Below, piece by piece: positions 32,849 to 49,809 of a stretch of DNA of 64,000 nt; positions within the stretch are counted from its first letter, which is position 1; every line of letters starts with the position of its first letter. Below the pieces are notes generated by a model. That model ran no database searches. It worked only from the letters and a program-made list of their open reading frames with translations, and was not told the DNA's origin. The stretch comes from Candidatus Aenigmatarchaeota archaeon (GTDB lineage Archaea; Aenigmatarchaeota; Aenigmatarchaeia; QMZP01; JAFGSV01). The position numbers and the translations under genes are program-made. The stretch lies in contig JAFGSV010000024.1 of NCBI GenBank assembly GCA_016934325.1, forward strand, positions 5,306 to 69,305, written 5' to 3'.

Positions 32849-33996
32849 GACCCGACCTCCCTTCCGTATCTTTGCAGGTGGGCAAGAGCCTCGACTATTA
32901 TTCTTCTCTGTCCAGGATCAGTCTCTTTAGATAATGATTCTTTCAGGTATGTTTCGGTCTGATTCAGGATTGGATCTCCGAAATCGAACGGCGTTTCCAA
33001 CTCAGGTGGAACGGTGATATTAAGTGACTCCGATTTCACTCTGAGGTTCTTGTGTATTGTTGCTTGAAACTCCAGCATATTCTCAAGTTCTTCTTTGAGT
33101 TCTAACGGCAGCTCCCCGTGAAGCTCCAATCGAACCATATCAATATCTCTGATTGCTTCGAAATGTCTCTTGAGTTCATCAAGAGAGGAAGAGTCTTTCA
33201 TCTCGAACTCGTCGGATGTCCATGTGAGTTTACCGGTGGTTATAGTGTCAATCTTAGGCGGATCACCTTTCTTTTCAATTTCGACCAGTAGGCATTTTCC
33301 TGCATCGTCTTCACCAAACTTGGTTTGTTCATGAGTCCCGGAATATGCGATTCGGGGTACTCCTCTGTCATCGTCGAAAGCTCTATGACTGTGCCAGTGG
33401 CCCAGAGCAAGGTAATCGATGCCCGTTCTTTCGATACAAGATGGATCAACCGGCAAAGCTGTATCTTCCCAGTTTGAGGAAGGGAACTTGCCTACCAGAC
33501 TTCCGTGGGCTACTCCTATATGGATGCCATCGGTTTCTCGAACGTTTGGGATTCTTGCCGTAAGATCCTGAGCGGTGACCTTGGAAAGAACCGGGCAAGG
33601 ATGAAGGGTTGCTCCGACAACTTCTACCACATCATCTGTGGTGATGATTGTGAGGTGCTTTAATCGTTGGAATATTGCCCTATTGTAGACACAATCTGAG
33701 CCAAGGATATCGTGATTCCCAGGAAGAAGATAAATAGGTATGCGGGGGTATTGATTGAATATGGCAACAACTTTCTTAACGGTCTCCTGACTTACCATGT
33801 TGTGCTCAAAGATATCGCCACATAATAGAACAAAGTCAGCATTCTTTTCCTGGGCGGATTTCAATACGTTGAGGATTGATTCAATTCGGATTTCTCGCAC
33901 AATGGGACCGGCTTCTCCAAGTCCTCCGCCTTTCATTCCGATTTGCCAGTCGGATGTCTGAATAAAACGTACCAAGTGATCATCTCCTATTGACAC
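32845..33996 (-). CDS. SbcD/Mre11-like calcineurin-fold metallophosphoesterase
   Basis: The motifs are SDWQIG, LLCGDIFEH, LPGNHD and ALGHWH. It overlaps the ATPase gene by 4 nt. Confidence 0.85.
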   Translation of the reverse strand: MSIGDDHLVRFIQTSDWQIGMKGGGLGEAGPIVREIRIESILNVLKSAQEKNADFVLLCGDIFEHNMVSQETVKKVVAIFNQYPRIPIYLLPGNHDILGSDCVYNRAIFQRLKHLTIITTDDVVEVVGATLHPCPVLSKVTAQDLTARIPNVRETDGIHIGVAHGSLVGKFPSSNWEDTALPVDPSCIERTGIDYLALGHWHSHRAFDDDRGVPRIAYSGTHEQTKFGEDDAGKCLLVEIEKKGDPPKIDTITTGKLTWTSDEFEMKDSSSLDELKRHFEAIRDIDMVRLELHGELPLELKEELENMLEFQATIHKNLRVKSESLNITVPPELETPFDFGDPILNQTETYLKESLSKETDPGQRRIIVEALAHLQRYGREVGS

Positions 33997-34381: not shown

Positions 34382-34690
34382 ATGGAGATGGCAATGGTTC
34401 AGATGGACGGGAAGGGAAGAGTGTTAATACCGAAGAAAATGCGGGAGAGCTTAAAAATGGGCGTTAACGTGGTCTTATTTGTATACGCGTTTGAAAGCGT
34501 AGTGTTCATGCGGAAGGTAAGCACGGACAATAAATCAGTTCTTGAGAGTGTGGAGAGGCTGGGGCTTACGGCCCTGGCCCCCTCAAATAAGTCGCTTGTC
34601 TACTTTGTAATTGCTTTTTGTCAGTATTTATTGTATACTACTCTTTCAAAGAGGCAGCCAATGGAATCGCGGACAAAGTTAGCGCTTTAA
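34382..34690 (+). CDS. AbrB/SpoVT-type DNA-binding protein
   Basis: The swapped-hairpin motif is VQMDGKGRVLIPKKMRESLKMG. The ATG at 34382 is preceded by GGAGGTGA. The upstream part of the track ORF (34142-) looks non-coding. Confidence 0.65.
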   Translation: MEMAMVQMDGKGRVLIPKKMRESLKMGVNVVLFVYAFESVVFMRKVSTDNKSVLESVERLGLTALAPSNKSLVYFVIAFCQYLLYTTLSKRQPMESRTKLAL

Positions 34691-34728
34691 GTTGAGCGCA
34701 ACCCTTGTTCGAAAACAGTGAGAGATGA

Positions 34729-36822
34729 ATGGGAATATTTTCTGTTAATAATTCACCAGTGAATATAGCTGAGTTGATTTCTTCTTGGTGTGATGAGAAG
34801 GATTTCAGAGTTTCGAAGCGGGCAGAGCAACGTTTGGCAAGCGTTACCTCTATAGACGTGGAGGCACGCCCAATTAACAAGAAAGCGGTCTCCGCAGTTT
34901 ATTGGGAAGCCAGCGGAGGAGAAAAGGAATCGGTTGTGCAGGTACGGGTAGAGCCAAATACAAGCCTTAGCGTTCTGGCTTGTCTAGCAATGTGCGCTTG
35001 CGCTGGGACAGTTTTTAGCGGGTTTTTCTACGCTTCCAGTTTTTCTAAATTGGGATTTCTCAGCATTATGATACTTGCTATCTTTTTCGGCCTGCTATTT
35101 ATTTTTTTAGGGAAGTGGCTCACAAGAAAGCAAATTTTATGTGAGGATTCTTTCTGGGAGATGCTACCTAAAAAAGAACTTCTGCGGCATGTAGAGGGGA
35201 ACTTTGGTCCAATCTGGTTTGAGCTTTCCTTTCCGTTCATTATGTCTGTGCTTCTTTTTCTGGTTTTCGCAGTGAATAAGGCACTAGTGTTTGGGGTTTT
35301 TATTCTCAGCTTTTCGTGGTGTTATGTCTTAGTCGGACTCCTTGACTTGTCTGTTAAAGATAGCTATTCGAGATGGAAAATGCTCACAGCTCATGTAACG
35401 AACAGATGGATACAGGTCTGTTTCAAAGCCGTAATGCCATTTGTTCTCTTGTGCGCATTGAACAGCCTTTTCATGCTTGTTGTGGAAGACCAGAACATTT
35501 CCAAAAACAAATTAGGTGTTGTTCTACAGGAAATTGTTAGCACAGCATTTTCCGAAAAAGCCTTTTCAAGAACAAGCGGCATCTTCGAGGAAGAGAATGC
35601 TTGGATACTTAAGAGCGCATTAACGAAAGGCGTAGAAGTGGCGAAAGGCAAGGACGTGAGTTCAGATGCCATAGAAAAAAAGCTTCGCGCGATAAGTGGT
35701 GTGATGCTCGCGGGTATTGTACTCCTGCTGATTTCTTACCTTATCTCTTTGCGTCGACTTCTCATCGTCGCGAATGAATGGGGGATGCGGACTGGATACG
35801 AGGACGAATCGAAAAGGATATCTACGCCGTCCGTGCATCTGAAGCACGGAAAGATAAGTCGCGTTTTATTCCTAGCGCTCATTACGCACTACTTGTTAGG
35901 AAGCGTAATAACAATAACCGCGGGGCTTATTTCTCTTGACGCCATATCTTATGTAATCTCGAAACACTCGCTTATTATCAGGCCGATGAACGTTTTGTGT
36001 GCTTGGATTTTTACGTTTGGAGGAATGGCCTTGACTCCTACTCTTAGTCAAATTGTGGGGTCTTGCTTTTTGCTCGCGTTAGCGTTTCCATTCATGGTAT
36101 TCTTTGTGAATAACATAAAGCGCTTGGTGAGCTTCATGGTGTGGAGGATCATGCTTTATAGGCATATTGGAATGTTGCCTGGGGTACTTATCAATGGAGA
36201 TAAAGTCAAAGAAGTGAATGGATTCATAAGAAGGACCTGTGCAAAATTCGGTCTGACAGTACCAAGGCTACTGATTGAAGAGAAGTGTAGGCAGCCGATT
36301 TTCATTCGAGGGAACCTTATGAGCAAGATCTCAACTATCGGCATTAATCGGAATGTGCTGGAAAATCTGAATACATATGAGTTAAATGCGGCCATAGCAC
36401 ATGAATTGGGACACCTGGCACAAGGTATGAGAAAAATCGAATGGCTTAAACTGATATCGGTAATAACGATGTACTCGAATTATTACCTGACACTGTGTCT
36501 TGACGTGCCACGACGTGAAGTTGAAGCTGATAGATTTGCGATAAGCGCCGGAGTGGACCCCGCTACGTTGGGCAGAGCTATGGTGAAAACCAGTATGATT
36601 GATTTGGGTGCGGAATCATCACGCAGGGAACAGTTGAGCAGAAAGTTAATAAAAGGAATCGAAAGTGTTCTCAGAATAAAAGGAATTGGCATGGTGCATG
36701 AATTCTTTTTCGGTGAAGCGATACTGGGTTACACGTACCCTCTTCTTTCTGAAAGGCTTGCGGCGATATGTATGTCGACAGGTAATGAGGCTGTTGTTGG
36801 TACCGAAACGGAAGCGAAATGA
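34729..36822 (+). CDS. Polytopic membrane protein with a C-terminal M48/M56-like zinc metalloprotease domain
   Basis: The HEXXH motif is AIAHELGHLAQG, with a downstream EVEADRFA that may supply the third ligand. There are more than 8 predicted TM helices N-terminal to it. Confidence 0.7.
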   Translation: MGIFSVNNSPVNIAELISSWCDEKDFRVSKRAEQRLASVTSIDVEARPINKKAVSAVYWEASGGEKESVVQVRVEPNTSLSVLACLAMCACAGTVFSGFFYASSFSKLGFLSIMILAIFFGLLFIFLGKWLTRKQILCEDSFWEMLPKKELLRHVEGNFGPIWFELSFPFIMSVLLFLVFAVNKALVFGVFILSFSWCYVLVGLLDLSVKDSYSRWKMLTAHVTNRWIQVCFKAVMPFVLLCALNSLFMLVVEDQNISKNKLGVVLQEIVSTAFSEKAFSRTSGIFEEENAWILKSALTKGVEVAKGKDVSSDAIEKKLRAISGVMLAGIVLLLISYLISLRRLLIVANEWGMRTGYEDESKRISTPSVHLKHGKISRVLFLALITHYLLGSVITITAGLISLDAISYVISKHSLIIRPMNVLCAWIFTFGGMALTPTLSQIVGSCFLLALAFPFMVFFVNNIKRLVSFMVWRIMLYRHIGMLPGVLINGDKVKEVNGFIRRTCAKFGLTVPRLLIEEKCRQPIFIRGNLMSKISTIGINRNVLENLNTYELNAAIAHELGHLAQGMRKIEWLKLISVITMYSNYYLTLCLDVPRREVEADRFAISAGVDPATLGRAMVKTSMIDLGAESSRREQLSRKLIKGIESVLRIKGIGMVHEFFFGEAILGYTYPLLSERLAAICMSTGNEAVVGTETEAK

Positions 36823-36838
36823 GGAGTTAAAAAAGAGA

Positions 36839-37705
36839 ATGCGTGAAAATGATTTGGAGATGCTCGACGGAGTCCGGGAGATTGCGAAGAGATTCATAAG
36901 TGAGAACTATAGCGACGAAGCTCGTTTTTTCGAGGCCATGTGGACGGTATTGTGCCCGCGCTTACGGGACTGGAAGCGTCTGCCAGCGGAGGCTTGGCCT
37001 CTACCGGACACTTCACGAATGGCAGCAACGGAAGTTGGGCTGACTGGACCGGAGGCTGTCGATCTGGTCACACCAATTGTCGTCGCGACGATGGGTTTTT
37101 TAATGCGTGAAGCGTATGAGAAGGACCTTTCACTTGAGGAACTCGAGGCTCTTACGGGGAAGACCGCGGCACACTTTGGTGCGAATCCAGGATTGACCGC
37201 ACAGTTAGTCAAACACGCTCCGGGTCTTTGCGAGGCTGTGACATCCGCGAAACCAGGCGCAAAGAAGGCCGTGGTATCGGGAATTGAGAGCCCCCAGTAT
37301 AAGATTTGGAGTCGGGGGAAGTGCGTCATAGTTGATGACATCAGCGGATACGAACGAAAGAAAAGGGATTACCTATTTTGGATTGACATGGATGAAAAGA
37401 AGCACATGTCGGTGAGAATACCGGGGGTGGAGCTTAAGAGAATGGCAGCCAGGCTGTTGTTTTATCTCGTTCAGAGGCTTGGGAAGCGCGTTCCGGTTAC
37501 AGACGTTCTCAGAGAGGTCTTTGAGGATGAAATCCCGGAGCCAGGAGGAACGGAAAAGAACAGAATTGATCAGCAGCTTTCGGCGCTTGAAAAGTTCTGT
37601 GGTGGCGGGTTCCGTGAGCATGTTTTCGAGGAATGGTTTGAGAAAGGTCTGGGTTTGAAAAGGTCATTCCTGGAGGGGTACTTCATCTATCGCAGCCTGC
37701 GGTGA
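36839..37705 (+). CDS. Hypothetical protein with an OmpR/PhoB-type winged-helix-like C-terminus
   Basis: The C-terminal pattern is VELKRMAARLLFYLVQRLGKRVPVTDVLREVFEDE....KNRIDQQLSALEKF. The start is uncertain (ATG at 36785 or 36839). Confidence 0.45.
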   Translation: MRENDLEMLDGVREIAKRFISENYSDEARFFEAMWTVLCPRLRDWKRLPAEAWPLPDTSRMAATEVGLTGPEAVDLVTPIVVATMGFLMREAYEKDLSLEELEALTGKTAAHFGANPGLTAQLVKHAPGLCEAVTSAKPGAKKAVVSGIESPQYKIWSRGKCVIVDDISGYERKKRDYLFWIDMDEKKHMSVRIPGVELKRMAARLLFYLVQRLGKRVPVTDVLREVFEDEIPEPGGTEKNRIDQQLSALEKFCGGGFREHVFEEWFEKGLGLKRSFLEGYFIYRSLR

Positions 37706-37716
37706 ATCTTTCATAA

Positions 37717-38304
37717 TCACTTTCCAAACGCTTCATGTTGGTAGCCTAGGGCTGCGATTCTGTCCGCTGCAGAGAGACACGGCGCCCTGAAGGGAAGGCT
37801 TATGTAATCGAGGAGAGCCTCACCTTTTTGGTGAAAAGCATGGGGGTTGCGGTACTGTCCAGCAGGTATGACGTTCAATTCGCTTTTCCTCACTAGGTTG
37901 ATTAGGCAGCGTTTTCCAAAGTGGCAGCCCTCATAGAGGGTCACCAAGAGCCTGCGGTTTGTTGCATCGTGATATTCTTCCTTTAACTCGAATTCGGGCG
38001 GCCATTCATTGGGCTTGATGAGCCAAGCCTCGCTCCATATGCAATGGGCTTCTCTGCGGGGCCTCCTGGCACAGAATGTGATTCTGGTATTGAAGGCCAG
38101 ATTCCCGTATATCGAATCTTCGTCCCATTCTTCCCAGCTAAAGGGAGGCCTCGAGACCATCCTTGCGGATTGATTGCGCTTGAGTTCCTCAGCTTCCGCA
38201 GATTGCTCGGTGAGACTGATAAGGACATTTTTCGAGGGGAGATAGCCATCTACGAGGTACGCATTCAACCTTTCATCTATTCCAGTGTAATGGGCCAAAC
38301 CCAT
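37717..38304 (-). CDS. Hypothetical protein
   Basis: 195-aa ORF with normal composition, divergent from the 38491 operon. No family was recognised. Confidence 0.5.
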   Translation of the reverse strand: MGLAHYTGIDERLNAYLVDGYLPSKNVLISLTEQSAEAEELKRNQSARMVSRPPFSWEEWDEDSIYGNLAFNTRITFCARRPRREAHCIWSEAWLIKPNEWPPEFELKEEYHDATNRRLLVTLYEGCHFGKRCLINLVRKSELNVIPAGQYRNPHAFHQKGEALLDYISLPFRAPCLSAADRIAALGYQHEAFGK

Positions 38305-38490
38305 GCTTCGTCACCTGTGCTATTTATGAGGGTAATTTATAAAAGCTTTACGGCGAGCAGAGATTTTTCAGCAGGTATTCATTCGGCGCACAGAGAGAAC
38401 GGTATGTATGCTCATGTTGTACTTCTGTTGATTGCAGACTGAATGACAGACATAGATGGCCCAAAAGGACTTCTCGAAAGGAGATTAACA

Positions 38491-38820
38491 ATGCAAACGG
38501 GAAACAACGGCAAACAGCGGATTCAAATCCATGTGCCGGACATGTTCCAGCAGCTTCTTCTCATGGAGCTTGGGAAAGCGCGCGGACTTGAAATCTGGAT
38601 AAACGGCAGGAGCAGCAGGAAGGTGAGCCTGTCCTGCAGCAAGGAAGAGGCGGATGCCCTGCTCCGGGAAGCCACGCCAGCCGGAAACGTCCTGTGCCTG
38701 CTGCAACTGGAGTCCGTGGCAAAGTCAATGAAGGTGGCGGGACAGACGCCGTCACAAAACCTGCTCGACATGGTCGCGCAGTTGCGGTCGGAGCTGGGAG
38801 TCTTGGCCGCTCGTGTTTAA
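38491..38820 (+). CDS. Small hypothetical protein, tandem paralog 1
   Basis: The start MQTGNNGK is preceded by AGGAG. It aligns with the next ORF: LLLMELGKARGLEIWINGRSSRKVSLSCSKEEADALLREA against LLLAEIAQSRGFECWIDDGNRYEVCIYASEEEIDSTVRKAA. Confidence 0.55.
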   Translation: MQTGNNGKQRIQIHVPDMFQQLLLMELGKARGLEIWINGRSSRKVSLSCSKEEADALLREATPAGNVLCLLQLESVAKSMKVAGQTPSQNLLDMVAQLRSELGVLAARV

Positions 38821-38880
38821 GGCACATGGATAGCGTGTTCGTTATAAGAAAACCTTTATTGTTTTGAAAGGAGAACGGAA

Positions 38881-39267
38881 ATGAAAAAGACAGAAAGAGA
38901 TGACCGGAAAAGATGCTATATGATTCCGTTTGCCAGCAGGATGCGGGCCCTTCTCCTCGCCGAGATAGCACAGTCAAGGGGATTCGAATGCTGGATTGAT
39001 GACGGAAACAGATATGAGGTGTGCATCTACGCAAGTGAGGAGGAAATAGACTCCACGGTCAGGAAGGCAGCGGATACCGATGACCTCCTGCGCCTGAAGC
39101 AGCTAGAAGCACTTTCAGCTACCATAGAGAGCATCGGTGAAAAGCCTTCGCGTTTGCTCAAGACGGCCATCTCTGCTGCGAAGCGCGAAGCTGCCCGCGA
39201 AGAATCAAAATGTGAAAAGCTTCCTGCAAAGAGATTCGGCCGTGACTCCCTGGCGTCAAGCAACTGA
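38881..39267 (+). CDS. Small hypothetical protein, tandem paralog 2
   Basis: It is preceded by AGGAGAACGGAA-ATG. It is homologous to 38491-38820 over about 90 aa (alignment given there). Confidence 0.55.
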   Translation: MKKTERDDRKRCYMIPFASRMRALLLAEIAQSRGFECWIDDGNRYEVCIYASEEEIDSTVRKAADTDDLLRLKQLEALSATIESIGEKPSRLLKTAISAAKREAAREESKCEKLPAKRFGRDSLASSN

Positions 39268-39347
39268 CACGGATGCCGCGAACTATCTGACAGCCGGAAC
39301 CGGGATAGTGACGGCGGAATGAAAGTATTTAAGACGGGAGAACAAAC

Positions 39348-39605
39348 ATGAACCATGAAGGTGAGCTGATGGGGTTTGCCAACGTCCTTTCAGGGATACG
39401 CAGGTGGTGGAGGAATTACGGCCTTGAAGCCGCCTGCGACGGCCTCATCGATGAATGGGAATACAAGGACCCGGAGCGCCTGGACATGATATGGGGATGG
39501 ATTCAGACGAATCAGATACCCGACGACGAGGACATGAGGGTGCTCTGCGAGGTCTACAGGAAAAGACTGGAGCCCAGACCGTGCTACCGTCCTGCGAAAA
39601 CATAG
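39348..39605 (+). CDS. Small Trp-rich hypothetical protein
   Basis: 85-aa ORF (IRRWWRNYG...WEYKDPERLDMIWGWIQTNQ). It is co-directional with the operon and preceded by a GGGAGA-like site. Confidence 0.4.
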   Translation: MNHEGELMGFANVLSGIRRWWRNYGLEAACDGLIDEWEYKDPERLDMIWGWIQTNQIPDDEDMRVLCEVYRKRLEPRPCYRPAKT

Positions 39606-39622
39606 TTATATCCGCCGTTGCG

Positions 39623-39910
39623 ATGATAACGGCGAACGTCGTTCTTTTTGCCGCTTTCTCGTGGCTCTGGAAAGAAGGAAAAGCCCTGTTGAGCGATTTA
39701 CTCCTCCTTGTATTGTTCTTCGTCAATCTGGCGACGTTTTTAATCAGTGCCACGCTTGGTGTCTACGGTAAAGATTCTTGCCGACATTTGTTCTCTATGG
39801 GTTGCTTGACGTATTTTCCGATGGTGATGTGGGTTTATGTTTGTCTCCGTAAGAATTATCGCCACAGGAAGGAGGTGGATTCAAAATCGAAACGCAGGAA
39901 ACGGAAATGA
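39623..39910 (+). CDS. Small three-TM membrane protein with a basic tail
   Basis: From the ATG at 39623: MITANVVLFAAFSWLW...LLLLVLFFVNLATFLISATLGVY...YFPMVMWVYVCL, followed by RKNYRHRKEVDSKSKRRKRK. The upstream part of the track ORF overlaps the previous gene. Confidence 0.4.
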   Translation: MITANVVLFAAFSWLWKEGKALLSDLLLLVLFFVNLATFLISATLGVYGKDSCRHLFSMGCLTYFPMVMWVYVCLRKNYRHRKEVDSKSKRRKRK

Positions 39911-39961
39911 CAGTTTCCCGGTCATTTTGACAGTAAAAACAGAAATGAAAGGAGCACAAAA

Positions 39962-40267
39962 ATGGAAACGCAGGAAACTACCGATTTGGCGAACCGTAAG
40001 ACGAACGCACTGGCCTCAAGAGACCTGGCGAACATCGTGCTATCAGGTGCCCAGTTATGCCAGCCCGCCGAGACTGTGGCAGTCGGCGTATTTTCGCCGG
40101 AGCTGGAAGAAATCGAAAGAAGAAGGGCCGAGAAGTCCGCCCGGCGGGACGCTGCACGAAGGGCGAAGGAGGCCGCCGCCAGGGGGCGGGCGGAAGAGGC
40201 CCGGCGGAGAGAGGAAGCCGCCGAGATCCGGCGCCAACAGAGGATAAGCGAGATAGGTTACGACTGA
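39962..40267 (+). CDS. Small protein with an Arg/Glu/Ala-rich helical C-terminus
   Basis: 101 aa, ending EEIERRRAEKSARRDAARRAKEAAARGRAEEARRREEAAEIRRQQRISEIGYD. Confidence 0.4.
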   Translation: METQETTDLANRKTNALASRDLANIVLSGAQLCQPAETVAVGVFSPELEEIERRRAEKSARRDAARRAKEAAARGRAEEARRREEAAEIRRQQRISEIGYD

Positions 40268-40335
40268 TAGAAGCTGGCGGCGGTGGTCCAGGGAGGGACG
40301 CCGCCGCTGGCGGGCTTACAGAAGGAGAAGTGATT

Positions 40336-41721
40336 ATGATAGAGCACGTCACAATAACGATTCCATGGCATATAATGAATGACGCGCTTCCCAGGCTTGA
40401 AAAGAACTACGGCAGAGAGGTCGCTTTCATCATCGCGGGCAAGCTCGAATATGGGAACACGCTTGAGTTTCTGCACCGCTCTACGTTCTTCACCGACAAT
40501 CCGGAAAGGGTCTGTTCCAGGATTGATGGGGATGGCTTGTACCGGCTGATTATGACTTACGCTCCGCGACGGGCGAGAGAGGAGGAGATAGAGCCGCTCC
40601 TTAAGGCGCTTTCGGGTTCCGGTGCGGAGAGATTCGGGTTCTTCCAGATAGTGAGAGTTCAGAGGGGCCTTTCGGCCATTGGCTGGGTGAAGGATCACGG
40701 GATGTTCTTCCCGGTGGACGTGATTAACGTCCCGGGGCCGGGGATGCTGAAGCTCTCAGTCGGACGGGCGTGGCCGCTGCCGCCCGTGAAGGCGAAGGAC
40801 GATGGCAATTCGGCCCCCGCAAGGGACGTTTTGCTGGAGGAGTGGCTCACGAGGTCGGACCGCCTGGAAGGTTTCATGGGAAACGGAAAAATAAAGGAGG
40901 GAGAGGATATACTGCTGAAGAGCATATTCTCGTCATTCGCGCTGATAGGTGCGGGACGGATGGGTCTGTGCCTGGCGAAGCATCTTATAAAGTACGGTGC
41001 GGGTAAGCGGGGTACGTTTCTGATTGTTGACCCGGATTTCCTGGAAGCCGCCAATCTGGACTCGATGGAGGTTCCGGAGAAGGCCGTCGGGATGTCCAAG
41101 GCGGATGTTGTCTCACTGGTCCTCAAATCGCTCGACAGCAACCTGCGGGTCGTGCCGGTCGTCGGGACACTGAGCGACATGGATGTCGTCCGCTCAGTTG
41201 CAGCGTGCGACTTTATCTTCATCTGTGTGGATAACGTGGCAGCTCGCGTCCAGGCGTCGATGATAGCCCAGATGTGCAACCGTGTATGCTTCGACCTTAC
41301 CGGTGCCATGGCTCGCAACGAAGATAAGAAAACGACGGCTGGTGGGGAGATTCGAATTTCGATTCTGGATTCGACTGGATGTTCGGTCTGCATGAGCGGC
41401 ATCGGCAAAGATGAATTCTTGCGGCAGGTTTCGGGCGGATACGGGGAGAGCAGATGGGATAGGCCGGAGAACTGGCAGGACGGCGGCAAGGCGGGTTCGT
41501 TCAAGGGGATAATCTCGATGGTGGCCGGCCAGACCTCGTTGTTGTTCCTGCGGCTTCTACAGGGCAGGCTGACGTCTTCGAAGTGGTTCCACCTTGATGC
41601 GGACGGCCTGATTGCCGTCCCGGAGGACGTGACGGATAGCGTGGATAGCGATGATTGCCTCTGCTGCTCCGACAGGTGGGGAGTGAGGGGGCTTGGCGAC
41701 TACTGGTTCAGAAATGGCTGA
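40336..41721 (+). CDS. Divergent E1-like (ThiF/MoeB superfamily) protein with an MPN/JAB-like but motif-less N-terminal region
   Basis: The start ATG at 40336 follows GAAGGAG. The Rossmann motif is ALIGAGRMGLCLAKHL, then LIVDPDFLEAANLDSM where the canonical D-x-D..NL-x-RQ would be. CSVC and CLCC cysteine pairs are present. The N-terminus (VTITIPWHIMNDALPRLEKNYGREVAFIIAGKLE) resembles the first strands of an MPN fold, but there is no HxH/JAMM motif. Confidence 0.65.
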   Translation: MIEHVTITIPWHIMNDALPRLEKNYGREVAFIIAGKLEYGNTLEFLHRSTFFTDNPERVCSRIDGDGLYRLIMTYAPRRAREEEIEPLLKALSGSGAERFGFFQIVRVQRGLSAIGWVKDHGMFFPVDVINVPGPGMLKLSVGRAWPLPPVKAKDDGNSAPARDVLLEEWLTRSDRLEGFMGNGKIKEGEDILLKSIFSSFALIGAGRMGLCLAKHLIKYGAGKRGTFLIVDPDFLEAANLDSMEVPEKAVGMSKADVVSLVLKSLDSNLRVVPVVGTLSDMDVVRSVAACDFIFICVDNVAARVQASMIAQMCNRVCFDLTGAMARNEDKKTTAGGEIRISILDSTGCSVCMSGIGKDEFLRQVSGGYGESRWDRPENWQDGGKAGSFKGIISMVAGQTSLLFLRLLQGRLTSSKWFHLDADGLIAVPEDVTDSVDSDDCLCCSDRWGVRGLGDYWFRNG

Positions 41722-42106
41722 AAAATACAGAATTGAATGGGCACGGGTTCTGAGTGACAGAAGACCGGCACCAGTGATGAATGAGAGCAAGGGCTTAACG
41801 GACCGGATTAGGGAACATAAGATTTGGTCGTCCAAAGGAAGTCTTGGCGTCGCAAAGCTAAAGGGGAAAAGAAGTTTTCGGAAACGGCTGAACTGGCATA
41901 TCAGTCCAGACGCGATGGAATTTATATTAGGACTCCTGGGCATCTTTCTGATGGTGGCTTTTACCATAATATGGTTTTTCTGCTGGGTTTGGGTGACGAG
42001 GCTTGTTGGACAAAGTCCCTACGTCCTCCTCGTCGGAGTGGTGTTTGTTCTGGGGTGGTGGCTGGGATTGTATTGTCTGTGTTATTTGTTTTCTGATTCA
42101 AGGTGA
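41714..42106 (+). CDS. Two-TM membrane protein translationally coupled to the E1-like gene
   Basis: The ATG at 41714 overlaps the E1-like stop (ATGGCTGA). The N-terminus is MAEKYRIEWARVLSDRR. The TM helices are FILGLLGIFLMVAFTIIWFFCWVWV and VLLVGVVFVLGWWLGLYCLCYL. Confidence 0.55.
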   Translation: MAEKYRIEWARVLSDRRPAPVMNESKGLTDRIREHKIWSSKGSLGVAKLKGKRSFRKRLNWHISPDAMEFILGLLGIFLMVAFTIIWFFCWVWVTRLVGQSPYVLLVGVVFVLGWWLGLYCLCYLFSDSR

Positions 42107-42172
42107 GCGGCTTGTTAAATTTGCAATGATTCATGAGGGGTTCGAGGCGGTTTGGTGACTACTGGTTTAGAA

Positions 42173-42688
42173 ATGGCTGATGAGAATAAAAAAATGGACT
42201 GGGCTCGCATTATCGAAAGCCAAAGAATAGAATCCAACGTTGATATTAATCATACCGGAGAGGGTAATATTTCCCGTGTCCTGGGGCGTAGCATCGCACA
42301 TGCTTTTTATAGAATCTTTTATGACAAAATAGTGAGAGAACCGGATGCATTGACAATTGCTTGTGTTGTTGCTGTGCTTGGCTTCTTAATATTCGTGTTT
42401 GCTATGTGGTTGATAGATAGCATGACTTCAGGAGAGGCAAAAAAACCACAAACGGAAATCCGGTATTCGTCTTCGAAAAAGGAAACGGAGAGCGACTATA
42501 AGCTGTGTGTCATAGACGGCGTGAAGTACATGCTCGACAGCGACGGGACGGTGAGTGGGACCGCCGTGGAATGGTTATGGGAAATGTTCAATCCGGCAAA
42601 ACCGCCAATTACACGGCACTCATTACGAAGGCCGCCGATGCGGGCTACAAGCTATTCATCGTTCTGGCCGGAGTTCATAACAGTCTGA
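42173..42688 (+). CDS. Membrane protein, N-terminal paralog of 41714-42106
   Basis: The N-terminus MADENKKMDWARIIESQR parallels MAEKYRIEWARVLSDRR. It has one TM helix (LTIACVVAVLGFLIFVFAMWLI). Its 3' end overlaps the Z1 ORF in another frame, and the last 35 or so codons look like out-of-frame read-through. Confidence 0.45.
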   Translation: MADENKKMDWARIIESQRIESNVDINHTGEGNISRVLGRSIAHAFYRIFYDKIVREPDALTIACVVAVLGFLIFVFAMWLIDSMTSGEAKKPQTEIRYSSSKKETESDYKLCVIDGVKYMLDSDGTVSGTAVEWLWEMFNPAKPPITRHSLRRPPMRATSYSSFWPEFITV

Positions 42689-44952
42689 GAAGTCAGACAC
42701 AGACAAGATTGAATGACGAGTTTCTGGGTTATGACCTTGACAGGGTCCAGAGAGTCACGGGCACGGAACAGCGAATCGGCGTGAAAAGGCTGTTTCCGGA
42801 GCACGGTATGGTCTATACCCTGACGAGCAGCAGCCAGAATGGCGATTTCAACAAGCGAATCGCATCCCAGGTCGGGATATTTCCCTCATCCGAAGGGCCT
42901 CCGATAATCCTGATCATAAAGAAAAATGTGAGTATCCTGAAGAATCTTATTACCTGGATTTCGTCCATATGTGATGAGCATGACCATAAAGGAAGGCCGC
43001 ATCTTTCCAACATACCCACTCTCATAATCGATGATGAATGTGATTATGCGTCGATAAACACCAAGGAACCCGAACTGGATGAGAACGGCAATATCAATTC
43101 TGAATGGGACCCGACAAGAACCAATCTTCTTATAAGAAGGTTGCTGAATATTTTTGACAGGTGCGCGTATGTGGGTTATACGGCCACTCCATACGCGAAT
43201 ATTTTCATTCACAAAGACAGGAAGCATCCCCGATGGGGTGATGACCTTTTCCCCCGGAGTTTTATCATAAGCCTGCCCACACCGAGCAATTATATCGGCC
43301 CGGAAAGAGTCTTCGGCTTGGAAGCGGATTCTGACAGGGGTGTTGAAGAAATCGAGGCTCTTCCCCTGATCCGGTATGTTGATGATCACACCGACATTAT
43401 TCCCGACCGGCACAAGAAAACCACCGTGGTCGCTGAATTACCTGAAAGCATGAAGCACGCGATAAAGAGCTTTCTTCTGAACTGTGCTGCTAGGTCATTG
43501 CGCCGGGAAGGAACTCCGCACAACTCAATGCTGATACATGTTACCAGATTTACGGCCGTACAGGGTCTTGTGGCCGATCTTGTTGAATCGGAACTTCAGA
43601 AACTGGCAGCCAGAATAATGAGCGGTGAAAACCTTGACGACTTCAGGAAAATCTGGGAATCGGACTTCGTACCGACGACAGAAGAGATGTCGGAACGCGG
43701 GTTTGCCGATGCTGCCAAGCACTCATGGATTGATGTTCTGAACCAGCTGAACAGGACCACAAGAACGGTCAGAATCAAGGTGATTAATGGAACAGCAAGA
43801 GATTATCTCGATTACAGGGAAACCGAGCTTGCAGCCGGTGTCAGAACAGCCGCCGGGGAAGAAGTCCCGTGGGAGGAGCAGGGACTGAATGCGATAGTAA
43901 TTGGGGGTGATAAGCTTTCAAGGGGATTAACTCTTGATGGTTTGACTGTAAGCTATTATCTCCGCGCTTCGAGAATGTACGATACTCTCATGCAGATGGG
44001 AAGATGGTTCGGTTACAAGGACGGATACAGCGATCTGTGCAGAATATACACGACTTATGAACTGGCTTCTTGGTACCGGCATATTGCCAACGCAACGATG
44101 GAACTTCGTGAGGAAATAAACTATATGGCCTCTATCGGAGAGACTCCTGACAGGTTCGGTCTCAAAGTGAGGAGTCATCCCGGAAGACTCATTGTCACGT
44201 CCGCGGGGAAGTCACGAAATGCTCAGAAGATAGACCTCTCGTATGCAGGTCAGAGAAAGGCAACAATCATATTCGACAAGAACCTGCTGAAAAACAACAT
44301 GGATGCACTGGAGAAGTTGATAAAAGAGATCGAAAGATCCAAGTATACACGGGTTCGGGAGAAGAACTTCCACTGGCGGGGAGTTTCCTCCGATACTGTC
44401 ATCAACTTTCTGCATAATTACAGAATACATGATGCAGCAATAAGGGAAGTCAAACCGGAACTATTTGCGAGGTACATTGAACGTCAGGTAAAGAATAATG
44501 AACTCACACACTGGGATGTTGTACTGGTTCATAAAGAAAAGGGTCCCGGGAAAAAACCGACAGTGAATATCGGAGGGTATCAAGTGGGATCAGTCTATCG
44601 AAAGCCAGATAAGATTGACGCCGGTATAATTTCCGTTGGTACTCTCATCAACCCGCCCGACGACATGCTGGATTTTACTGATAAAGAAACTGAGAAAGCC
44701 AAGAAAGATCCTGATTGGGGCGATAAAAAAATACCTGCAAAAATCAGGACTATTGTAAAGAAATATCGTCCCAAAGACCGTGGACTTCTGCTGATATATC
44801 TGCCTTATTGTGACACTGCCGGTAAATCATACGGCGGTCAGGGTGAGGAAGTTGTCGCCTTCGGGATAAGCTTCCCTGAAAGCCCCACGGCTGTTCCCAT
44901 TCAATATGTTGTCAATCCTGACGTATATTCGGTCGATAACGGGAGTCAATAG
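42505..44952 (+). CDS. Z1-domain P-loop ATPase
   Basis: Walker A and context are GMVMGNVQSGKTANYTALITKAADAGYKLFIVLAGVHNSLRSQTQTRL. The Z1 signature is GGDKLSRGLTLDGLTVSYYLRASRMYDTLMQMGRWFGYKDGYSDLCRIY. The N-terminus is unclear. The track start is GTG at 42505, and the first ATG before the P-loop is at 42571. Confidence 0.8.
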   Translation: MCHRRREVHARQRRDGEWDRRGMVMGNVQSGKTANYTALITKAADAGYKLFIVLAGVHNSLRSQTQTRLNDEFLGYDLDRVQRVTGTEQRIGVKRLFPEHGMVYTLTSSSQNGDFNKRIASQVGIFPSSEGPPIILIIKKNVSILKNLITWISSICDEHDHKGRPHLSNIPTLIIDDECDYASINTKEPELDENGNINSEWDPTRTNLLIRRLLNIFDRCAYVGYTATPYANIFIHKDRKHPRWGDDLFPRSFIISLPTPSNYIGPERVFGLEADSDRGVEEIEALPLIRYVDDHTDIIPDRHKKTTVVAELPESMKHAIKSFLLNCAARSLRREGTPHNSMLIHVTRFTAVQGLVADLVESELQKLAARIMSGENLDDFRKIWESDFVPTTEEMSERGFADAAKHSWIDVLNQLNRTTRTVRIKVINGTARDYLDYRETELAAGVRTAAGEEVPWEEQGLNAIVIGGDKLSRGLTLDGLTVSYYLRASRMYDTLMQMGRWFGYKDGYSDLCRIYTTYELASWYRHIANATMELREEINYMASIGETPDRFGLKVRSHPGRLIVTSAGKSRNAQKIDLSYAGQRKATIIFDKNLLKNNMDALEKLIKEIERSKYTRVREKNFHWRGVSSDTVINFLHNYRIHDAAIREVKPELFARYIERQVKNNELTHWDVVLVHKEKGPGKKPTVNIGGYQVGSVYRKPDKIDAGIISVGTLINPPDDMLDFTDKETEKAKKDPDWGDKKIPAKIRTIVKKYRPKDRGLLLIYLPYCDTAGKSYGGQGEEVVAFGISFPESPTAVPIQYVVNPDVYSVDNGSQ

Positions 44953-44961
44953 GGAAGTGTA

Positions 44962-45966
44962 ATGATGAAATATGACTTAGAAAAGATATGGGCTTTACTT
45001 GAGGGAGGAATTGAACCCGCAGAATCCAGCCACAACCGGGTGTATAGAAGACTTGATTCCGATAAGGAAACGGGAATCCGGCTCGGTGTTGTCACGCCCG
45101 GTAAAGTCCGGGAGATACTTGTACAGATAGACAGGAAGCAGCAAAAGTCTTTCTCGCCCCCTAAATGGACGGGGATGAGATTTGAAATAATATCACTGGA
45201 TATTCCAAAGAGAACACCTCACATAAGGCTCTTTCTTGCCAACAGGGAACACAAGACCGTATTCTCAACCGTCTGTCATGATATGGTCAATACGCTGCTG
45301 AAGGTCCGAGCTCCCGCTCTTCGGGGCGAGGAATTACAGAACTGTATTGAAAGATGGAGTAGCTTCTTCAGGAAATACGGTGCTGAAGGACTGTCACCGG
45401 AGATGCAACGGGGCCTCTTTGGGGAACTCACGTGGCTCGAGCTGCTGCTCTCCCGGAATATGAATGCGACGGCCGCCGTCAAATCGTGGAAGGGCTGCAG
45501 ACGAAATTTTCATGATTTTCAATACGGGGACAGGGTCGTTGAAGTAAAGACGACCATCAGAAAAGAGCCCCGCAAGGTGCGTATCAACAATGAAAGGCAG
45601 CTCGACAATCGTGGATTCAGCTCACTGTACCTTTTCATATTAACCCTTCAAAAACTTGAATCCGGAGGCCGGACGCTTCCGGGGCTGGTAGATGAAATCA
45701 GGGATGTGATCGGGAATGACAGATCGGCCGAGAATCTGTTCGAGATTGCACTCAGGGACGCCGGATTTCTTGACGCTCACGTTTCCCTTTATACAGATGG
45801 ATACAGGATTATCAAACAGGAGATTTTTGACGTGAAAAGCGGATTCCCCAGAGTTATTGAAGTTCCAAAAGGTGTGGGAGATATTGCATATACGGTGACG
45901 GTCTCGGCATGCTCCGATTTTGAATTGAAGTTTGATGATGCGGTGGATAATTTCGTGGGAACGTGA
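44962..45966 (+). CDS. PD-(D/E)xK-motif protein (DUF4420-like), the usual partner of Z1/AIPR genes
   Basis: 334 aa. The nuclease-like core is FHDFQYGDRVVEVKTT. It sits in the position typical of Z1-AIPR clusters. Confidence 0.65.
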   Translation: MMKYDLEKIWALLEGGIEPAESSHNRVYRRLDSDKETGIRLGVVTPGKVREILVQIDRKQQKSFSPPKWTGMRFEIISLDIPKRTPHIRLFLANREHKTVFSTVCHDMVNTLLKVRAPALRGEELQNCIERWSSFFRKYGAEGLSPEMQRGLFGELTWLELLLSRNMNATAAVKSWKGCRRNFHDFQYGDRVVEVKTTIRKEPRKVRINNERQLDNRGFSSLYLFILTLQKLESGGRTLPGLVDEIRDVIGNDRSAENLFEIALRDAGFLDAHVSLYTDGYRIIKQEIFDVKSGFPRVIEVPKGVGDIAYTVTVSACSDFELKFDDAVDNFVGT

Positions 45967-47984
45967 ACCTGATGGGCGATCTTAAAGAGGCTTCAGAGAG
46001 ATTTCATTCTGATATCAGCACAACGGCTCTCGAACTTGACCTGTTAAAAGAACACAAGTTTGTTGAGGATGTTGGTGAAATCCTTGTGGACGCGGGGGAG
46101 CTTGAAGACTGCGTCAGGTGTTCATATCAGGGACGGGGGACCAAGGTTGACGGGTATTTCTATGACGCAGAATTTGACGTTCTATACTTGATCGTGTCCC
46201 ACTGGATAGATGAGACCGATCCGGCAAAATCAAGAGTCGCACCCGGGGAAATAGACAAGATATTTAAAAGATGCGAAAACTTTTTCAGCCGTAGCCTTAA
46301 GCAACTGTTCAGTAAAATAGAGATTGCCAATGAGGCTCATGACCTCGCCCATCTCATATACGAAACGAAAAAGGAAATCACCGCCGTTAAAATATTCCTG
46401 GTCACCGATGGCATATGTCCCAAAAGACATGCGGAAGTTGTTGATATAGACGGCATAGAGGTTACCAGAGTAATATGGGACATCGAGCGAATTCTGACGT
46501 TCACGGAAACCGGCGAGCGAGAGCCCATAATCATTGATTTTACAGAAAATGGTGGCCCCATTCCGTGTCTGGTGGAAAACACAGAAGATAAGAGATACAC
46601 GGTTTATCTGGCATATATTACAGGACAGGCTCTTGCAGATATGTATTCAAGGTGGGGAACGAGACTGCTTGATATGAATGTAAGAGTCTTTCTGTCCGCA
46701 CGGGGCAAGGTGAACAAGGGAATCAGGGAGACTATTGTTAACGAACCAGACATGTTCTGCGCTTACAACAACGGAATAACGGTTTTTGCCAGGGAAATAG
46801 ATTATACATCTCTGGATAACGGTCTTGTCGGGATATCAAAGGCCACGGGCTTCCAGATAGTTAACGGCGGTCAGACAGTTGCTTCTCTCTACCATGCGAG
46901 CAAGAAGCAGAAAGCACAATTATCCCAGATATCGGTTCAGATGAAACTCATTGTTGTTAATAACAGGGATGATATTGAAAAGCTTGTACCCAGAATAAGC
47001 GAGTATTCGAATACACAGAACAAGGTCAGTATGGCGGATTTATCTGCAAACGATCCACCTCATCCGGAATTGCACGAGATATCGAAACGCCTGAAGGCAC
47101 CCGATCCGACAGGAGGATCCCGGCAGACTTACTGGTTCTACGAGAAAGCACGCGGCAGCTATGAGGAGACAAAAAGACTTGAGGCAAAAACCCCGGCCAA
47201 AAGAAGAGAGTTCGAGGCCCTGTATCCAAAGAAACAGCGATTTGATAAAAGTCTTTTCGGGAAATCCTGGAATACGTATCTGAGAAAGCCTCATACAGTG
47301 AGTCTTGGTGCTCAGAAAAATTTCGCAAATTTTAACATGTGGCTCAAAGAACAAAAGGAAGAGGATCTGAATGAGTTTTTTAAGAAAACGGTGGCGCTGG
47401 TTTTATTGTGGAAAAATGCCGAACGGATTGTCCGAAAGCAACCTTTCGAAGGATACAGGCACAACATTGTGACATACACACTTGCCTGGATATTCGAGTT
47501 ATCAGACAGCAGAATCGACCTGGCCAAAATCTGGAGAGAGCAGGTTATACATGAAAAGATAAACGATGCAGTTGAGGAAATGTCTTTGATTGTTAATGAA
47601 CACATAAGGAAAACTGACAAAAACGTCACGGAATGGTGCAAGAGCGAAGACTGCTGGAAAAAGCTTCTGGATAAAGATTATCAACTCCCCAAAGGTATAG
47701 AAGACGCTTATATAGCGCCTGGTTCGAAAATAGACGTTTATGATCCAAGAATCAGGGAGGAGGTAGAGGTTATCGAATTCTGCAAATCAAAGGGATCTCA
47801 AGCCTGGTGGGATCTGGCAAAATGGCTGAAGGATAGACAGTTTTTGTCCGCCAAAGCAAGAAGTCAGTGCGGTAATATGGGTAAAGCACTTGGAAGGGGG
47901 AAAGACCCAAGTTATTTCCTCTCCAAGGCGTGCAAGAAAGCGTGGGAGGATGCTGAAGTCAGGGGCTGGTCCCCAAATGATTAA
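45963..47984 (+). CDS. AIPR (abortive-infection phage-resistance) family protein
   Basis: 673 aa. The family-type motif is GFQIVNGGQTVASLYHA. It overlaps the upstream gene by 4 nt. Confidence 0.8.
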   Translation: MNLMGDLKEASERFHSDISTTALELDLLKEHKFVEDVGEILVDAGELEDCVRCSYQGRGTKVDGYFYDAEFDVLYLIVSHWIDETDPAKSRVAPGEIDKIFKRCENFFSRSLKQLFSKIEIANEAHDLAHLIYETKKEITAVKIFLVTDGICPKRHAEVVDIDGIEVTRVIWDIERILTFTETGEREPIIIDFTENGGPIPCLVENTEDKRYTVYLAYITGQALADMYSRWGTRLLDMNVRVFLSARGKVNKGIRETIVNEPDMFCAYNNGITVFAREIDYTSLDNGLVGISKATGFQIVNGGQTVASLYHASKKQKAQLSQISVQMKLIVVNNRDDIEKLVPRISEYSNTQNKVSMADLSANDPPHPELHEISKRLKAPDPTGGSRQTYWFYEKARGSYEETKRLEAKTPAKRREFEALYPKKQRFDKSLFGKSWNTYLRKPHTVSLGAQKNFANFNMWLKEQKEEDLNEFFKKTVALVLLWKNAERIVRKQPFEGYRHNIVTYTLAWIFELSDSRIDLAKIWREQVIHEKINDAVEEMSLIVNEHIRKTDKNVTEWCKSEDCWKKLLDKDYQLPKGIEDAYIAPGSKIDVYDPRIREEVEVIEFCKSKGSQAWWDLAKWLKDRQFLSAKARSQCGNMGKALGRGKDPSYFLSKACKKAWEDAEVRGWSPND

Positions 47985-49110: not shown

Positions 49111-49525
49111 GGTTCCCCCCGCCGTTCTGCTGTGCCGGAGCGTCCGGCTCGCCCTCGAAGACGTAGCGTTCGAAGAATCTTGCCGTCTCTATGGTCAGAT
49201 CCTTCTTGGCTTCGGGGTCAAGCTGCACGGGTGCGAGGATCTCGCTGGCGGATTTCAGGCACGACATCCTCGCGATCTGCCTGTCCTTGCCGTTTGGCCG
49301 GTACTGCGGCTGACCGTTGCCGTTGCCGTCGACGGGCTCTACGTCCGTCATGTTCTTGAAGTTCCCGCTCTGCTTGTAGTCGAAGTCGACGGTGACTCCT
49401 TCCTGCAGCGTGTCGAAGTACTTGTCGTCCCAGACGCTGTATCGCTCTCCCCCGACCTGGACGGTCAGGTATTTCTGTCCCTTTCTGCTTTCGTTCTCCC
49501 AGACCTGTTCTATCATCCCTCTCAT
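49091..49525 (-). CDS. Hypothetical protein with an OB-fold-like N-terminus
   Basis: 144 aa (IEQVWENESRKGQKYLTVQVGGERYSVWDDKYF...). It has a Gly/Asn/Gln-rich linker and an acidic, Gly-rich tail. It overlaps the Cas4-like gene by 20 nt. Confidence 0.45.
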   Translation of the reverse strand: MRGMIEQVWENESRKGQKYLTVQVGGERYSVWDDKYFDTLQEGVTVDFDYKQSGNFKNMTDVEPVDGNGNGQPQYRPNGKDRQIARMSCLKSASEILAPVQLDPEAKKDLTIETARFFERYVFEGEPDAPAQQNGGGNHGRGSQ

Positions 49526-49553
49526 ACTGTACCTCCAATTTTATTCAAGGCAG

Positions 49554-49739: not shown

Positions 49740-49809
49740 TACATGAGGTATCTCAGTTCGTCATTTTAGGGTAATGGACAGAGATATTGCGGTTTGTGCG
49801 ATTAAGATA

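Follow-up and report, generated by a model that had tools for sequence, protein, structure and literature searches.

The stretch of DNA analysed here, called the window, comprises 64,000 nucleotides of contig JAFGSV010000024.1 (positions 5,306 to 69,305), assigned to a Candidatus Aenigmatarchaeota archaeon. Between positions 38491 and 42688 it carries eight co-directional open reading frames (ORFs) on the plus strand, named O1 to O5, E1, O7 and O8 (Table 1), all of which were found where an initial annotation, made from the sequence alone, had placed them around a divergent ubiquitin-activating-type (E1) protein of 461 aa. That annotation had treated the eight genes as one undescribed system, whereas the comparison with related loci points to a smaller conserved unit, O5-E1-O8, whose E1 is tentatively read below as an adenylating enzyme that works without a ubiquitin-like (Ubl) protein.

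Family members were compared in ten independent contigs, namely the window and loci L001 to L006, L009 (a Pirellulales metagenome-assembled genome, MAG), L011 and L015; a locus scan with the family alignment gave one genome locus and five metagenome loci. An O5-like gene lies directly upstream of the E1 gene in 10/10 loci, and an O8-like gene follows it wherever the sequence continues, its start overlapping the E1 stop in the relatives. As O5-E1-O8 recurs in ten independent contigs, the arrangement is not due to chance, and E1 homologues in other genomes do keep two of the neighbours listed by the initial annotation. The functional unit is the O5-E1-O8 triad within a larger backbone and not all eight genes; O2, O3, O4 and O7 are local, lineage-specific additions.

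Table 1. Features of the E1 region and its flanks (positions in the window unless another locus is named)
Feature	Position	Strand	Description
AbrB/SpoVT-like small regulator	34382-34690	+	First backbone gene; 61% identical to L015 399-875 and 33% to L001 4114-4647, same position
Polytopic membrane protein, M48-type HELGH motif	34729-36822	+	Peptidase_M48, E 2.2e-8; homologous to L015 1331-3406 (700 aa, E 1e-41) and L001 5490-7412
Protein of ~300-340 aa	36686-37705	+	No assigned family; 38% to L015 3455-4333 (E 5e-60), 25% to L001 7488-8393
Conserved protein of ~190 aa	37717-38304	-	35% to L015 4340-4900(-), E 7e-33
O1	38491-38820	+	109 aa; semi-conserved accessory protein
O2	38881-39267	+	128 aa; O1 paralogue, copy specific to the window
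O3	39348-39605	+	85 aa, Trp-rich, window-specific; ORF with Shine-Dalgarno-like site
O4	about 39581-39910	+	Small protein with 2-3 transmembrane segments and poly-basic tail; independently mobile accessory gene
O5	39962-40267	+	101 aa; small partner present in all loci; candidate E1 substrate
E1	40336-41721	+	461 aa; predicted MPN/JAB-like domain (1 to ~150) without catalytic site, ThiF/E1 adenylation domain (~190-461)
49-nt direct repeat, copy 1	41673-41721	+	True E1 3' end and coupled start of the next gene
O7	41714-42106	+	Extra O8-like membrane protein; coding sequence beyond the E1 overlap is an inserted segment
49-nt direct repeat, copy 2	42132-42180	+	82% identity; relic of the E1 3' end (..GDYWFRNG and stop) before O8
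O8	42173-42688 (ORF); 42173-42550 (genuine part)	+	Fast-evolving membrane partner, 3'-truncated in the window
Z1-domain protein related to MzaC	42505-44952	+	Without about 125 N-terminal profile positions; outside the E1 module
O8/MzaC junction	42538-42567		MzaC homology from 42538, O8 homology to 42550
TM82	L002 7247-7495, L004 3706-3954, L005 3193-3441, L001 12509-12757, L011 4137-4385, L015 7883-8131		Upstream of the HerA-like ATPase

Shine-Dalgarno-like sites had been reported for most of the genes, and those of the GGAG type were found 5-10 nt before O1, O2, O5 and E1. Differences from the closest relatives fall mainly on third codon positions in O1, O4, O5 and E1, which are therefore genuine coding genes. 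The 5' leader (38300-38500) gave an unremarkable RNA fold, and scans for promoters and terminators stayed at background level. Profile and sequence searches with the small ORFs gave no match in Pfam, NCBIfam, PADLOC or the PDB sequences, O1 included.

O1 and O2 are paralogues, as first proposed (29% identity, E 2.5e-12). O1 is 74% identical to L004 273-608 and has relatives in the same position in L001 and L009; such O1-like proteins occur in four lineages and are absent from L015, L002, L003 and L006, all of which keep the triad. The Trp-rich protein O3 (5 Trp in 85 aa) has no homologue in any related locus. The membrane protein with a poly-basic tail described by the initial annotation is O4, with 2-3 hydrophobic segments and the tail KRRKRK; it is 94% identical to L005 39-368, with mostly synonymous differences, where the two E1 proteins are only 37% identical. 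Among the loci compared, O2, O3 and O7 were found in the window only. The last two genes had been described as paralogous membrane proteins, the first coupled to the E1 stop. The coupling stands, as the O7 start sits within ATGGCTGA, overlapping that stop; the kinship is slighter, as O7, with 2-3 hydrophobic segments, has only an N-terminal MAExxRIxWARV motif in common with the O8 family and lies in an insertion that follows the E1 overlap.

The E1 protein matches the Pfam ThiF family (PF00899) with 61.2 bits (cutoff 28.1, E 1e-16, residues 197-411), and its motifs FALIGAGRMG, LIVDPD, ANLDSM, GCSVCM and DCLCCS bear out the ThiF/MoeB-type core, the CSVC/CLCC cysteine pairs and the ANLDSM variant that had been read from the sequence. 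Its matches among PDB sequences are MoeB, Uba1 and Uba4. A housekeeping enzyme that activates a sulfur carrier, in the manner of MoeB or ThiF, would fit the best PDB and NCBIfam sequence matches, which are to these proteins, as well as the retained MoeB-type Zn site of two CxxC pairs. Such a role is barely credible, since the NCBIfam scores (at most 38.7 bits) lie far below the equivalog cutoffs of 150-650, an extra MPN-like domain precedes the E1 part, neither ThiS/MoaD nor rhodanese accompanies the gene, the surrounding region is mobile, integrated and mosaic, with integrase and defence genes, and the family is extremely rare in the word-indexed search described below.

A structural model of the E1 protein was built with AlphaFold2 (AF2) from seven family members. 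The predicted template modelling (TM) score was 0.77, and the predicted local distance difference test (pLDDT) gave 84-89 for residues 1-150 and about 90 for the Rossmann core; only the linker between the domains, the C-terminal tail and the crossover loop (346-386) have low confidence. When the model was compared with the PDB by Foldseek, the top eight matches were all chains of Citrobacter BubCD (E 5e-20, TM score 0.61, range 0.59-0.61, over ~461-476 alignment columns), followed by ThiF, MoeB, UBA5, MccB and Cap2 at about E 1e-11 or weaker and query-normalised TM scores of ~0.34-0.41; a Foldseek search of BFVD gave matches to the E1 part only. In BubCD, encoded by Type I Bub operons (class 6e/6E.1 of Iyer et al. 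2006; PMC1779556; bioRxiv 10.1101/2024.11.21.623953), a JAB peptidase is fused to an E1; its structures are 9ea4, 9ea5 and 9eav. The N-terminal domain, thought by the initial annotation to resemble only the first strands of an MPN/JAB fold, is thus predicted to be a whole MPN/JAB-like fold that docks on the E1 part in the manner of BubCD. The lack of the HxH, also noted there, was borne out: the JAMM motif (H-x-H...S-x-x-D) is absent in 7/7 close members, and among the 149 best representatives of the wider clade only one has it.

Conservation of the adenylation domain was counted over 132 full-length representatives of 50%-identity clusters, which share as little as 20-30% identity, after alignment to the family model. 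K255 and D299 are present in every representative. The glycines of the Gly-loop are kept (G205 and G210 in 130-131/132, G207 in 128/132), and the loop includes an arginine, R208 (GxGRxG), in 127/132. D232, D234 and N240 are near-invariant (124-131/132), and R304, R340 and the first pair of Zn-site cysteines, C349/C352, reach 127-131/132, with G387 in 130 and S388 in 128. The second pair, C441/C444, was found in 116 and 106 of the 132 (32 and 31 of 34 close members) and W380 in 116 (25 of the 34), the lower counts reflecting mainly gaps in the broad set. At position 243, equivalent to MoeB R73 (the Arg of the NLxRQ motif), Arg occurs in 0/132, and the next residue is Met in 89/132. We infer that R208 may compensate for the lost arginine of NLxRQ.

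An active enzyme is not the only way to read these residues, as both halves of the protein could be dead, leaving a pseudoenzyme scaffold whose sole role would be to link O5, O8 and the downstream ATPase machinery. The arginine of NLxRQ in BubCD is presumably R227. Its R227A variant is the adenylation-dead control in the Bub work (bioRxiv 10.1101/2024.11.21.623953), and this, along with the missing JAMM motif and the constant loss of the residue equivalent to MoeB R73, would speak for a scaffold. The full conservation of K255/D299 and the near-full conservation of the Gly-loop, D232/D234, N240 and R304 across 132 representatives argue the other way, as does the rise of an invariant Arg in the Gly-loop. 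Inactive adenylation domains of the E1 type usually lose their nucleotide and Mg2+ residues. Because the Mg2+-binding Asp and the phosphate-binding Lys are strictly conserved, an active nucleotide site is favoured and a mere scaffold is unlikely.

The breadth of the family depended on the search used. A word-indexed search of 5.8 billion proteins, run with the protein and with a family profile, returned only seven clusters, whereas 1.84 billion cluster representatives, scanned exhaustively with HMMER, yielded ~30 full-length relatives (E 1e-169 to 1e-50) together with a wider group of proteins of 400-460 aa near 1e-30. As the word-indexed searches returned the same 8 proteins, the clade is visible only through the exhaustive scan. 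The 461-aa protein belongs to a large, unnamed and distinct E1 clade, which at 50% identity comprises well over 100 clusters. Its members all score below cutoff with every NCBIfam model, and it has no curated family; a scan of IMG/VR gave no relative, and a tblastn search of PLSDB no full-length one. No publication on an E1 clade with a dead JAB domain or on its gene set was found, in a literature coverage that was incomplete and in which comparative-genomics surveys of the Aravind group may mention related architectures.

Members of the wider clade occupy several different membrane-linked contexts. In L013 (4823-17391) and in L014, such an E1 gene lies in another co-directional cluster, with genes for a MotA/ExbB-like protein, an ExbD-like protein, a 395-aa unknown, a trypsin-like peptidase, the E1 and a 481-aa unknown. 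A reverse transcriptase and HRDC gene pair and a NACHT/FGE-sulfatase protein are encoded beside it. This context is again membrane-linked, with no Ubl or ubiquitin-conjugating (E2) protein there.

O5 is the only small partner found in all loci. The family measures 80-104 aa; its N-terminal segment is weakly conserved, its Arg/Glu-rich stretch varies in length, and the last residue is Asp in 9/10 and Glu in 1/10. The window protein had been described as Arg/Glu-rich and helical, and is indeed 39% charged, with an AF2 model that is disordered over residues 8-40 (pLDDT <50) and forms a single long helix over 46-100 (about 90). O5 was considered as a Ubl or an E2 and rejected, the model showing no folded domain, neither beta-grasp nor E2. 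As a separate observation, E1 residues 452-455 (about 41689-41700 of the window) form a nearly invariant G-L-G-D a few residues before the C-terminus of the E1 itself, and several O5 proteins have a similar end, ..G-x-D or ..G-D.

The O8 proteins share only an N-terminal MA[DE]xxxR[VI]xW motif (9/9 orthologues) and transmembrane segments. They evolve far more quickly than the E1 (L009 against L011: 69% identity for O8, 96% for E1) and show no third-position excess of differences.

As the initial annotation had stated, no E2, active JAMM or Gly-Gly partner was detected; nor was a beta-grasp protein, by Pfam, NCBIfam and PADLOC searches of the small ORFs and by the structure model of O5. A conventional Bub- or Bil-type Ubl conjugation could still operate if the Ubl and the E2 were encoded elsewhere in the genome or were too divergent to be recognised among O1, O2, O3 and O8. 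BubCD, the nearest structural relative, does operate with a Ubl and an E2, and O1-like proteins adjoin O5 in four lineages. Nevertheless, this is quite improbable: the small ORFs match no Pfam, NCBIfam, PADLOC or PDB-sequence entry, none of the eight products ends in Gly-Gly or even in Gly, four loci keep the triad in the absence of O1-like genes, O5, the sole universal small partner, is predicted to have no beta-grasp, and a dead JAB domain could not process a Ubl precursor.

The position of a small gene with a conserved terminal residue immediately upstream of the E1, with membrane proteins following, also recalls peptide maturation of the MccB/PaaA type, in which O5 would be the ribosomally made precursor of a secreted toxin, formed by adenylation or nucleotidylation of the O5 C-terminus, and the membrane proteins would serve for export or immunity. 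MccB is among the Foldseek matches, but it aligns with the E1 part only, and the N-terminal domain resembles the JAB domain of BubCD and not the peptide clamp of MccB. MccA precursors end in Asn, whereas O5, at 80-104 aa and with a helix of 55 residues, has Asp/Glu at its end, and no MFS/ABC exporter or MccE/F-like immunity gene was found among the neighbours. Such a toxin pathway is accordingly very improbable.

The reading that we tentatively prefer is that the E1 is an active, Ubl-independent C-terminal adenylating enzyme that probably acts on O5 at the membrane, and the recurring set of E1 and two partners is probably an undescribed protein-activation system. The E1 would be a dimeric, ATP-dependent enzyme working without a beta-grasp Ubl, and would activate a co-encoded protein, most likely O5, at its C-terminal carboxylate, with the invariant C-terminal tail of TM82 (described below) as an alternative substrate. 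The dead MPN domain would act as a docked tail-binding or scaffold domain, while the conserved N-terminal peptide of O8 would tether the E1 to the membrane. An acceptor would then receive the activated C-terminus, possibly by way of the invariant Ser388 beside the crossover loop, by analogy with Bub and its oxyester chemistry; in full elements, the HerA-type ATPase machinery would form the setting of these events. Substrates other than a Ubl have precedents in Cap2, which acts on the C-terminus of a cyclase, and in MccB, which acts on that of a peptide.

Several results weigh against an active enzyme of this kind. O5 is not a folded domain and ends in Asp/Glu, not Gly, and we know of no E1 that adenylates such a terminus. 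The pairing of O5 with the E1 comes from gene order only. The arginine of NLxRQ has no counterpart in the clade. The alignment by hhalign of the N-terminal domain with that of a genuine JAB-E1 fusion, P0008 (HSHPEE...S..D), was not significant (probability 0.5%), so the MPN assignment depends on the AF2 model, one model from seven sequences. Finally, the window copy lacks the downstream genes and may be non-functional.

A more far-reaching version is doubtful as a whole. In it, a hitherto unrecognised Ubl-independent protein-ligation system would use the E1 with the relocated phosphate-binding Arg and the dead MPN domain to adenylate the acidic C-terminus of O5 and join O5, at the membrane, to an acceptor that is a protein or a lipid. 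Specificity would be set by the hyper-variable O8, and the triad would be a cassette for recognition, exclusion or immunity, serving the HerA-ATPase-driven apparatus with which mobile elements of bacteria and archaea handle DNA.

In complete loci, the triad is embedded in a constant gene order: an AbrB-like gene, an M48-like gene, the genes for the ~300-aa protein and, on the other strand, the ~190-aa protein, then the triad, and then genes for a Cys-rich Zn-ribbon protein, TM82, a HerA-like ATPase and two acidic Pro-rich proteins. The window retains all four upstream genes (34382-38304). The AbrB-like motif MEMAMVQMDGKGRVLIPKK was read directly in the sequence; the true start of the third ORF is probably internal, its product (339 aa) having no Pfam, PADLOC or PDB match, and the fourth product (195 aa) has no family or PDB match. 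TM82 is an 82-aa protein with three transmembrane segments and an almost invariant ..LDDVFGKEK tail, even where the E1 proteins share ~33-55%. The HerA/DUF87-type ATPase has about 685 aa, a C-terminal winged helix-turn-helix and a PD-(D/E)XK-like motif, and is the only backbone product matched by PADLOC (HerA and mad8 models). It is a single 685-aa ORF in L001 (12759-14816) and two overlapping ORFs, split at the same position, in L004 (3956-5058), L011 (4387-6578) and L015 (8133-10255), a pattern that suggests a split of the gene in one lineage and not an error of sequencing. An assignment of the downstream genes to a type IV secretion or conjugation apparatus (VirB2/VirB3/VirB4-like) was not adopted, the ATPase being of the HerA/DUF87 type and its TraG P-loop and TrwB matches weak and below threshold.

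The triad can change its backbone. Over O5-E1-O8, L011 and L009 share 91.5% DNA identity (E1 96% in aa), whereas over the Zn-ribbon, TM82 and ATPase genes L011 shares 93% DNA identity with L004 (85-94% in aa), although their E1s are 33% identical. Since L011 matches L009 in the triad and L004 downstream, the triad was exchanged as a unit between backbones. The backbone, of ten-plus genes, belongs to mobile elements of uncultured bacteria and archaea, and elements with the E1 module seem to collect defence cargo. Just upstream of the backbone in L001 (1-3249) lies a Qat-like defence set, with a KAP NTPase, a weak QatB match and a faint QueC match.

The window copy of the module is a damaged one. 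Its DNA is homologous to L004 over 38476-38816 (O1), 39948-41745 (O5 and E1), and 42149-42481 and 42494-42550 (O8), while 38817-39947 (O2 to O4) has no counterpart in L004, and 41746-42148 (O7) none in L004 or L002, both stretches being insertions. The two copies of the 49-nt repeat that bracket O7 point to recombination at the conserved junction between the E1 end and the O8 start. Homology of O8 to both L004 and L002 ends at ..YMLDSDGT (nt 42550), homology to MzaC runs from 42538 onward, and the last ~46 codons of the O8 ORF are therefore out-of-frame MzaC. The MzaC-related gene matches the PADLOC model with 2.5e-177 (profile positions 129-840 of 952) and the NCBIfam model with 7.7e-200 (125-791 of 806). 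The genes for the Zn-ribbon protein, TM82 and the cognate ATPase are absent from the 64-kb window, which holds only a distant DUF87 paralogue (22366-24414, minus strand).

The Mza defence system consists of five genes, MzaA to MzaE. A partial Mza-like cluster (42505-47984) follows the junction, with the Z1 protein (MzaC), MzaD and an AIPR protein (MzaE model, E 2e-87). No MzaA or MzaB model was matched among the ORFs upstream of MzaC that the PADLOC scan covered, namely O8 and the E1-module genes. The truncated MzaC keeps its Walker A motif (GNVQSGKT), so a shortened protein might still be made. The initial annotation had noted that the E1 genes run straight into this Z1/AIPR cluster. The contact appears to be a recombination or deletion scar that cut both O8 and MzaC, with no functional link, and it may even be an assembly chimera. 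As the window copy has been cut short and joined to a defence gene that is itself incomplete, the complete loci (L015, L001, L011 and L009) are better suited for study.

In the rest of the window, a minus-strand run (25929-33996) encodes a SNF2/ResIII-type helicase, a DUF6094 methyltransferase, a 901-aa AAA_15/SMC-like ATPase and a calcineurin-like phosphoesterase, the latter two forming an SbcCD-like pair, and is likely involved in defence or DNA processing; relative to the synteny with L001, it splits the backbone between 30106 and 34142. On the other side, 48313-54586 (minus strand) holds a Cas4-like PD-(D/E)XK nuclease, a DUF4238 protein, a tyrosine integrase with a C-terminal zinc ribbon and a second DUF87/HerA-type ATPase, and is the probable end of the integrated element, with the high-GC housekeeping genes ThiC, ThyX, SHMT and MatE directly beyond it. 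Farther upstream, at 17424-24414, a 1645-aa protein with a weak Sacsin (HATPase-like) match adjoins a convergent 682-aa DUF87 ATPase, ~25% identical to the ATPase of the E1 module. An Orc1/Cdc6 gene (archaeal-type initiator) opens the segment 6329-12900 and is followed by a RelA/SpoT-domain protein gene, co-directional with an ABC transporter (ATPase, permease and NMT1/THI5-like binding protein). No tRNA gene was found in the whole window. The GC content swings from 38% to 60% along it, which suggests a mosaic of foreign segments.

Recent work has established the bacterial E1/E2/JAB systems CBASS Cap2/Cap3, Bil and Bub as functional relatives of eukaryotic ubiquitination, and those studied experimentally act in antiviral immunity. 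Type II CBASS Cap2 has an E1 domain homologous to that of the window protein (PADLOC E1-E2 models up to E 1.4e-12, Foldseek 7to3 5e-12) and a similar mobile or defence-island context. However, the PADLOC alignment covers only residues ~200-353, the E1 part of the profiles, the window protein having no E2 domain, and no CD-NTase (cGAS/DncV-like nucleotidyltransferase), effector, Cap3 or active JAB was found among the window neighbours by Pfam and PADLOC. Cap2 reportedly acts on the C-terminus of the cyclase, so that a missing Ubl would not be unprecedented for a bacterial E1 system. MccB is likewise an E1-fold enzyme with an extra N-terminal substrate-binding domain and a small, ribosomal, non-beta-grasp substrate encoded just upstream. 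Its Foldseek match (E ~6e-10, TM score 0.38-0.39, against 0.59-0.61 for BubCD) is no better than that of E1-only proteins, the N-terminal domain of the window protein is predicted to be MPN-like and not a peptide clamp, the putative substrate ends in Asp/Glu (10/10) and not in Asn, and export and immunity genes are missing.

With MoeB, ThiF and UBA5 the protein shares the Rossmann core, the Mg2+-binding Asp, the conserved Lys and the tetracysteine Zn site; it differs in its best NCBIfam score (38.7 bits against a cutoff of 275), in the change of NLxRQ to NLxxM and in the extra N-terminal domain, and no sulfur-carrier partner was detected. PRTRC ThiF and BilD are also E1-like proteins of mobile elements. 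Still, TIGR03736 (PRTRC_ThiF) was not matched at E <= 1, and the wider clade stays at or below 30 bits against a cutoff of 144.75. No small ORF matches any NCBIfam model, and no search was aimed at the other PRTRC genes; equivalents of BilA, BilB or BilC are missing.

The likeness is greatest to BubCD. Bub chemistry proceeds through oxyester intermediates, with the nucleophile in the flexible crossover loop 347-377 of BubCD (bioRxiv 10.1101/2024.11.21.623953). The two proteins are similar in length (458 and 461 aa) and in their predicted build, with an N-terminal JAB/MPN-fold domain docked on a single C-terminal E1 domain; both have a long flexible crossover loop at the same place (347-377 in BubCD, 346-386 here), and neither has a catalytic cysteine outside the Zn site. 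At a sequence identity of 14%, however, the JAMM residues with which BubCD processes BubAB (E28, H91, H93 and D104) have no counterpart, the adenylation arginine is replaced by one in the Gly-loop, and the invariant loop Tyr370 is not conserved, a loop Tyr occurring only in the three closest sequences of the family alignment. Neither BubAB (a Ubl-E2 fusion whose Ubl has a C-terminal Gly) nor BubE/DUF6527 (Ser-His protease) was matched by Pfam, NCBIfam or PADLOC among the neighbours in the window, L001, L009 and L013, and the partners are O5 and O8 with the Zn-ribbon, TM82 and HerA-like ATPase backbone. As the JAMM site, Tyr370, BubAB and BubE are missing, the window E1 is not a member of Type I Bub. 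Nor does it qualify as a member of CBASS type II, Bil, PRTRC, MccB or MoeB/ThiF.

The view of the initial annotation that the gene set fits no described architecture therefore holds in part: no description of the set was found, but, as the closest known relative is BubCD, the architecture is a variant of the described JAB-E1 kind. If active, it would add a new accessory cassette of mobile elements in Planctomycetota and in MAGs labelled as DPANN, and would extend E1 chemistry to a non-beta-grasp substrate ending in Asp, in a membrane context. The clade keeps the body plan of BubCD but has lost its peptidase site and canonical arginine, and in place of a Ubl, an E2 and BubE it has a fixed pair of new partners.

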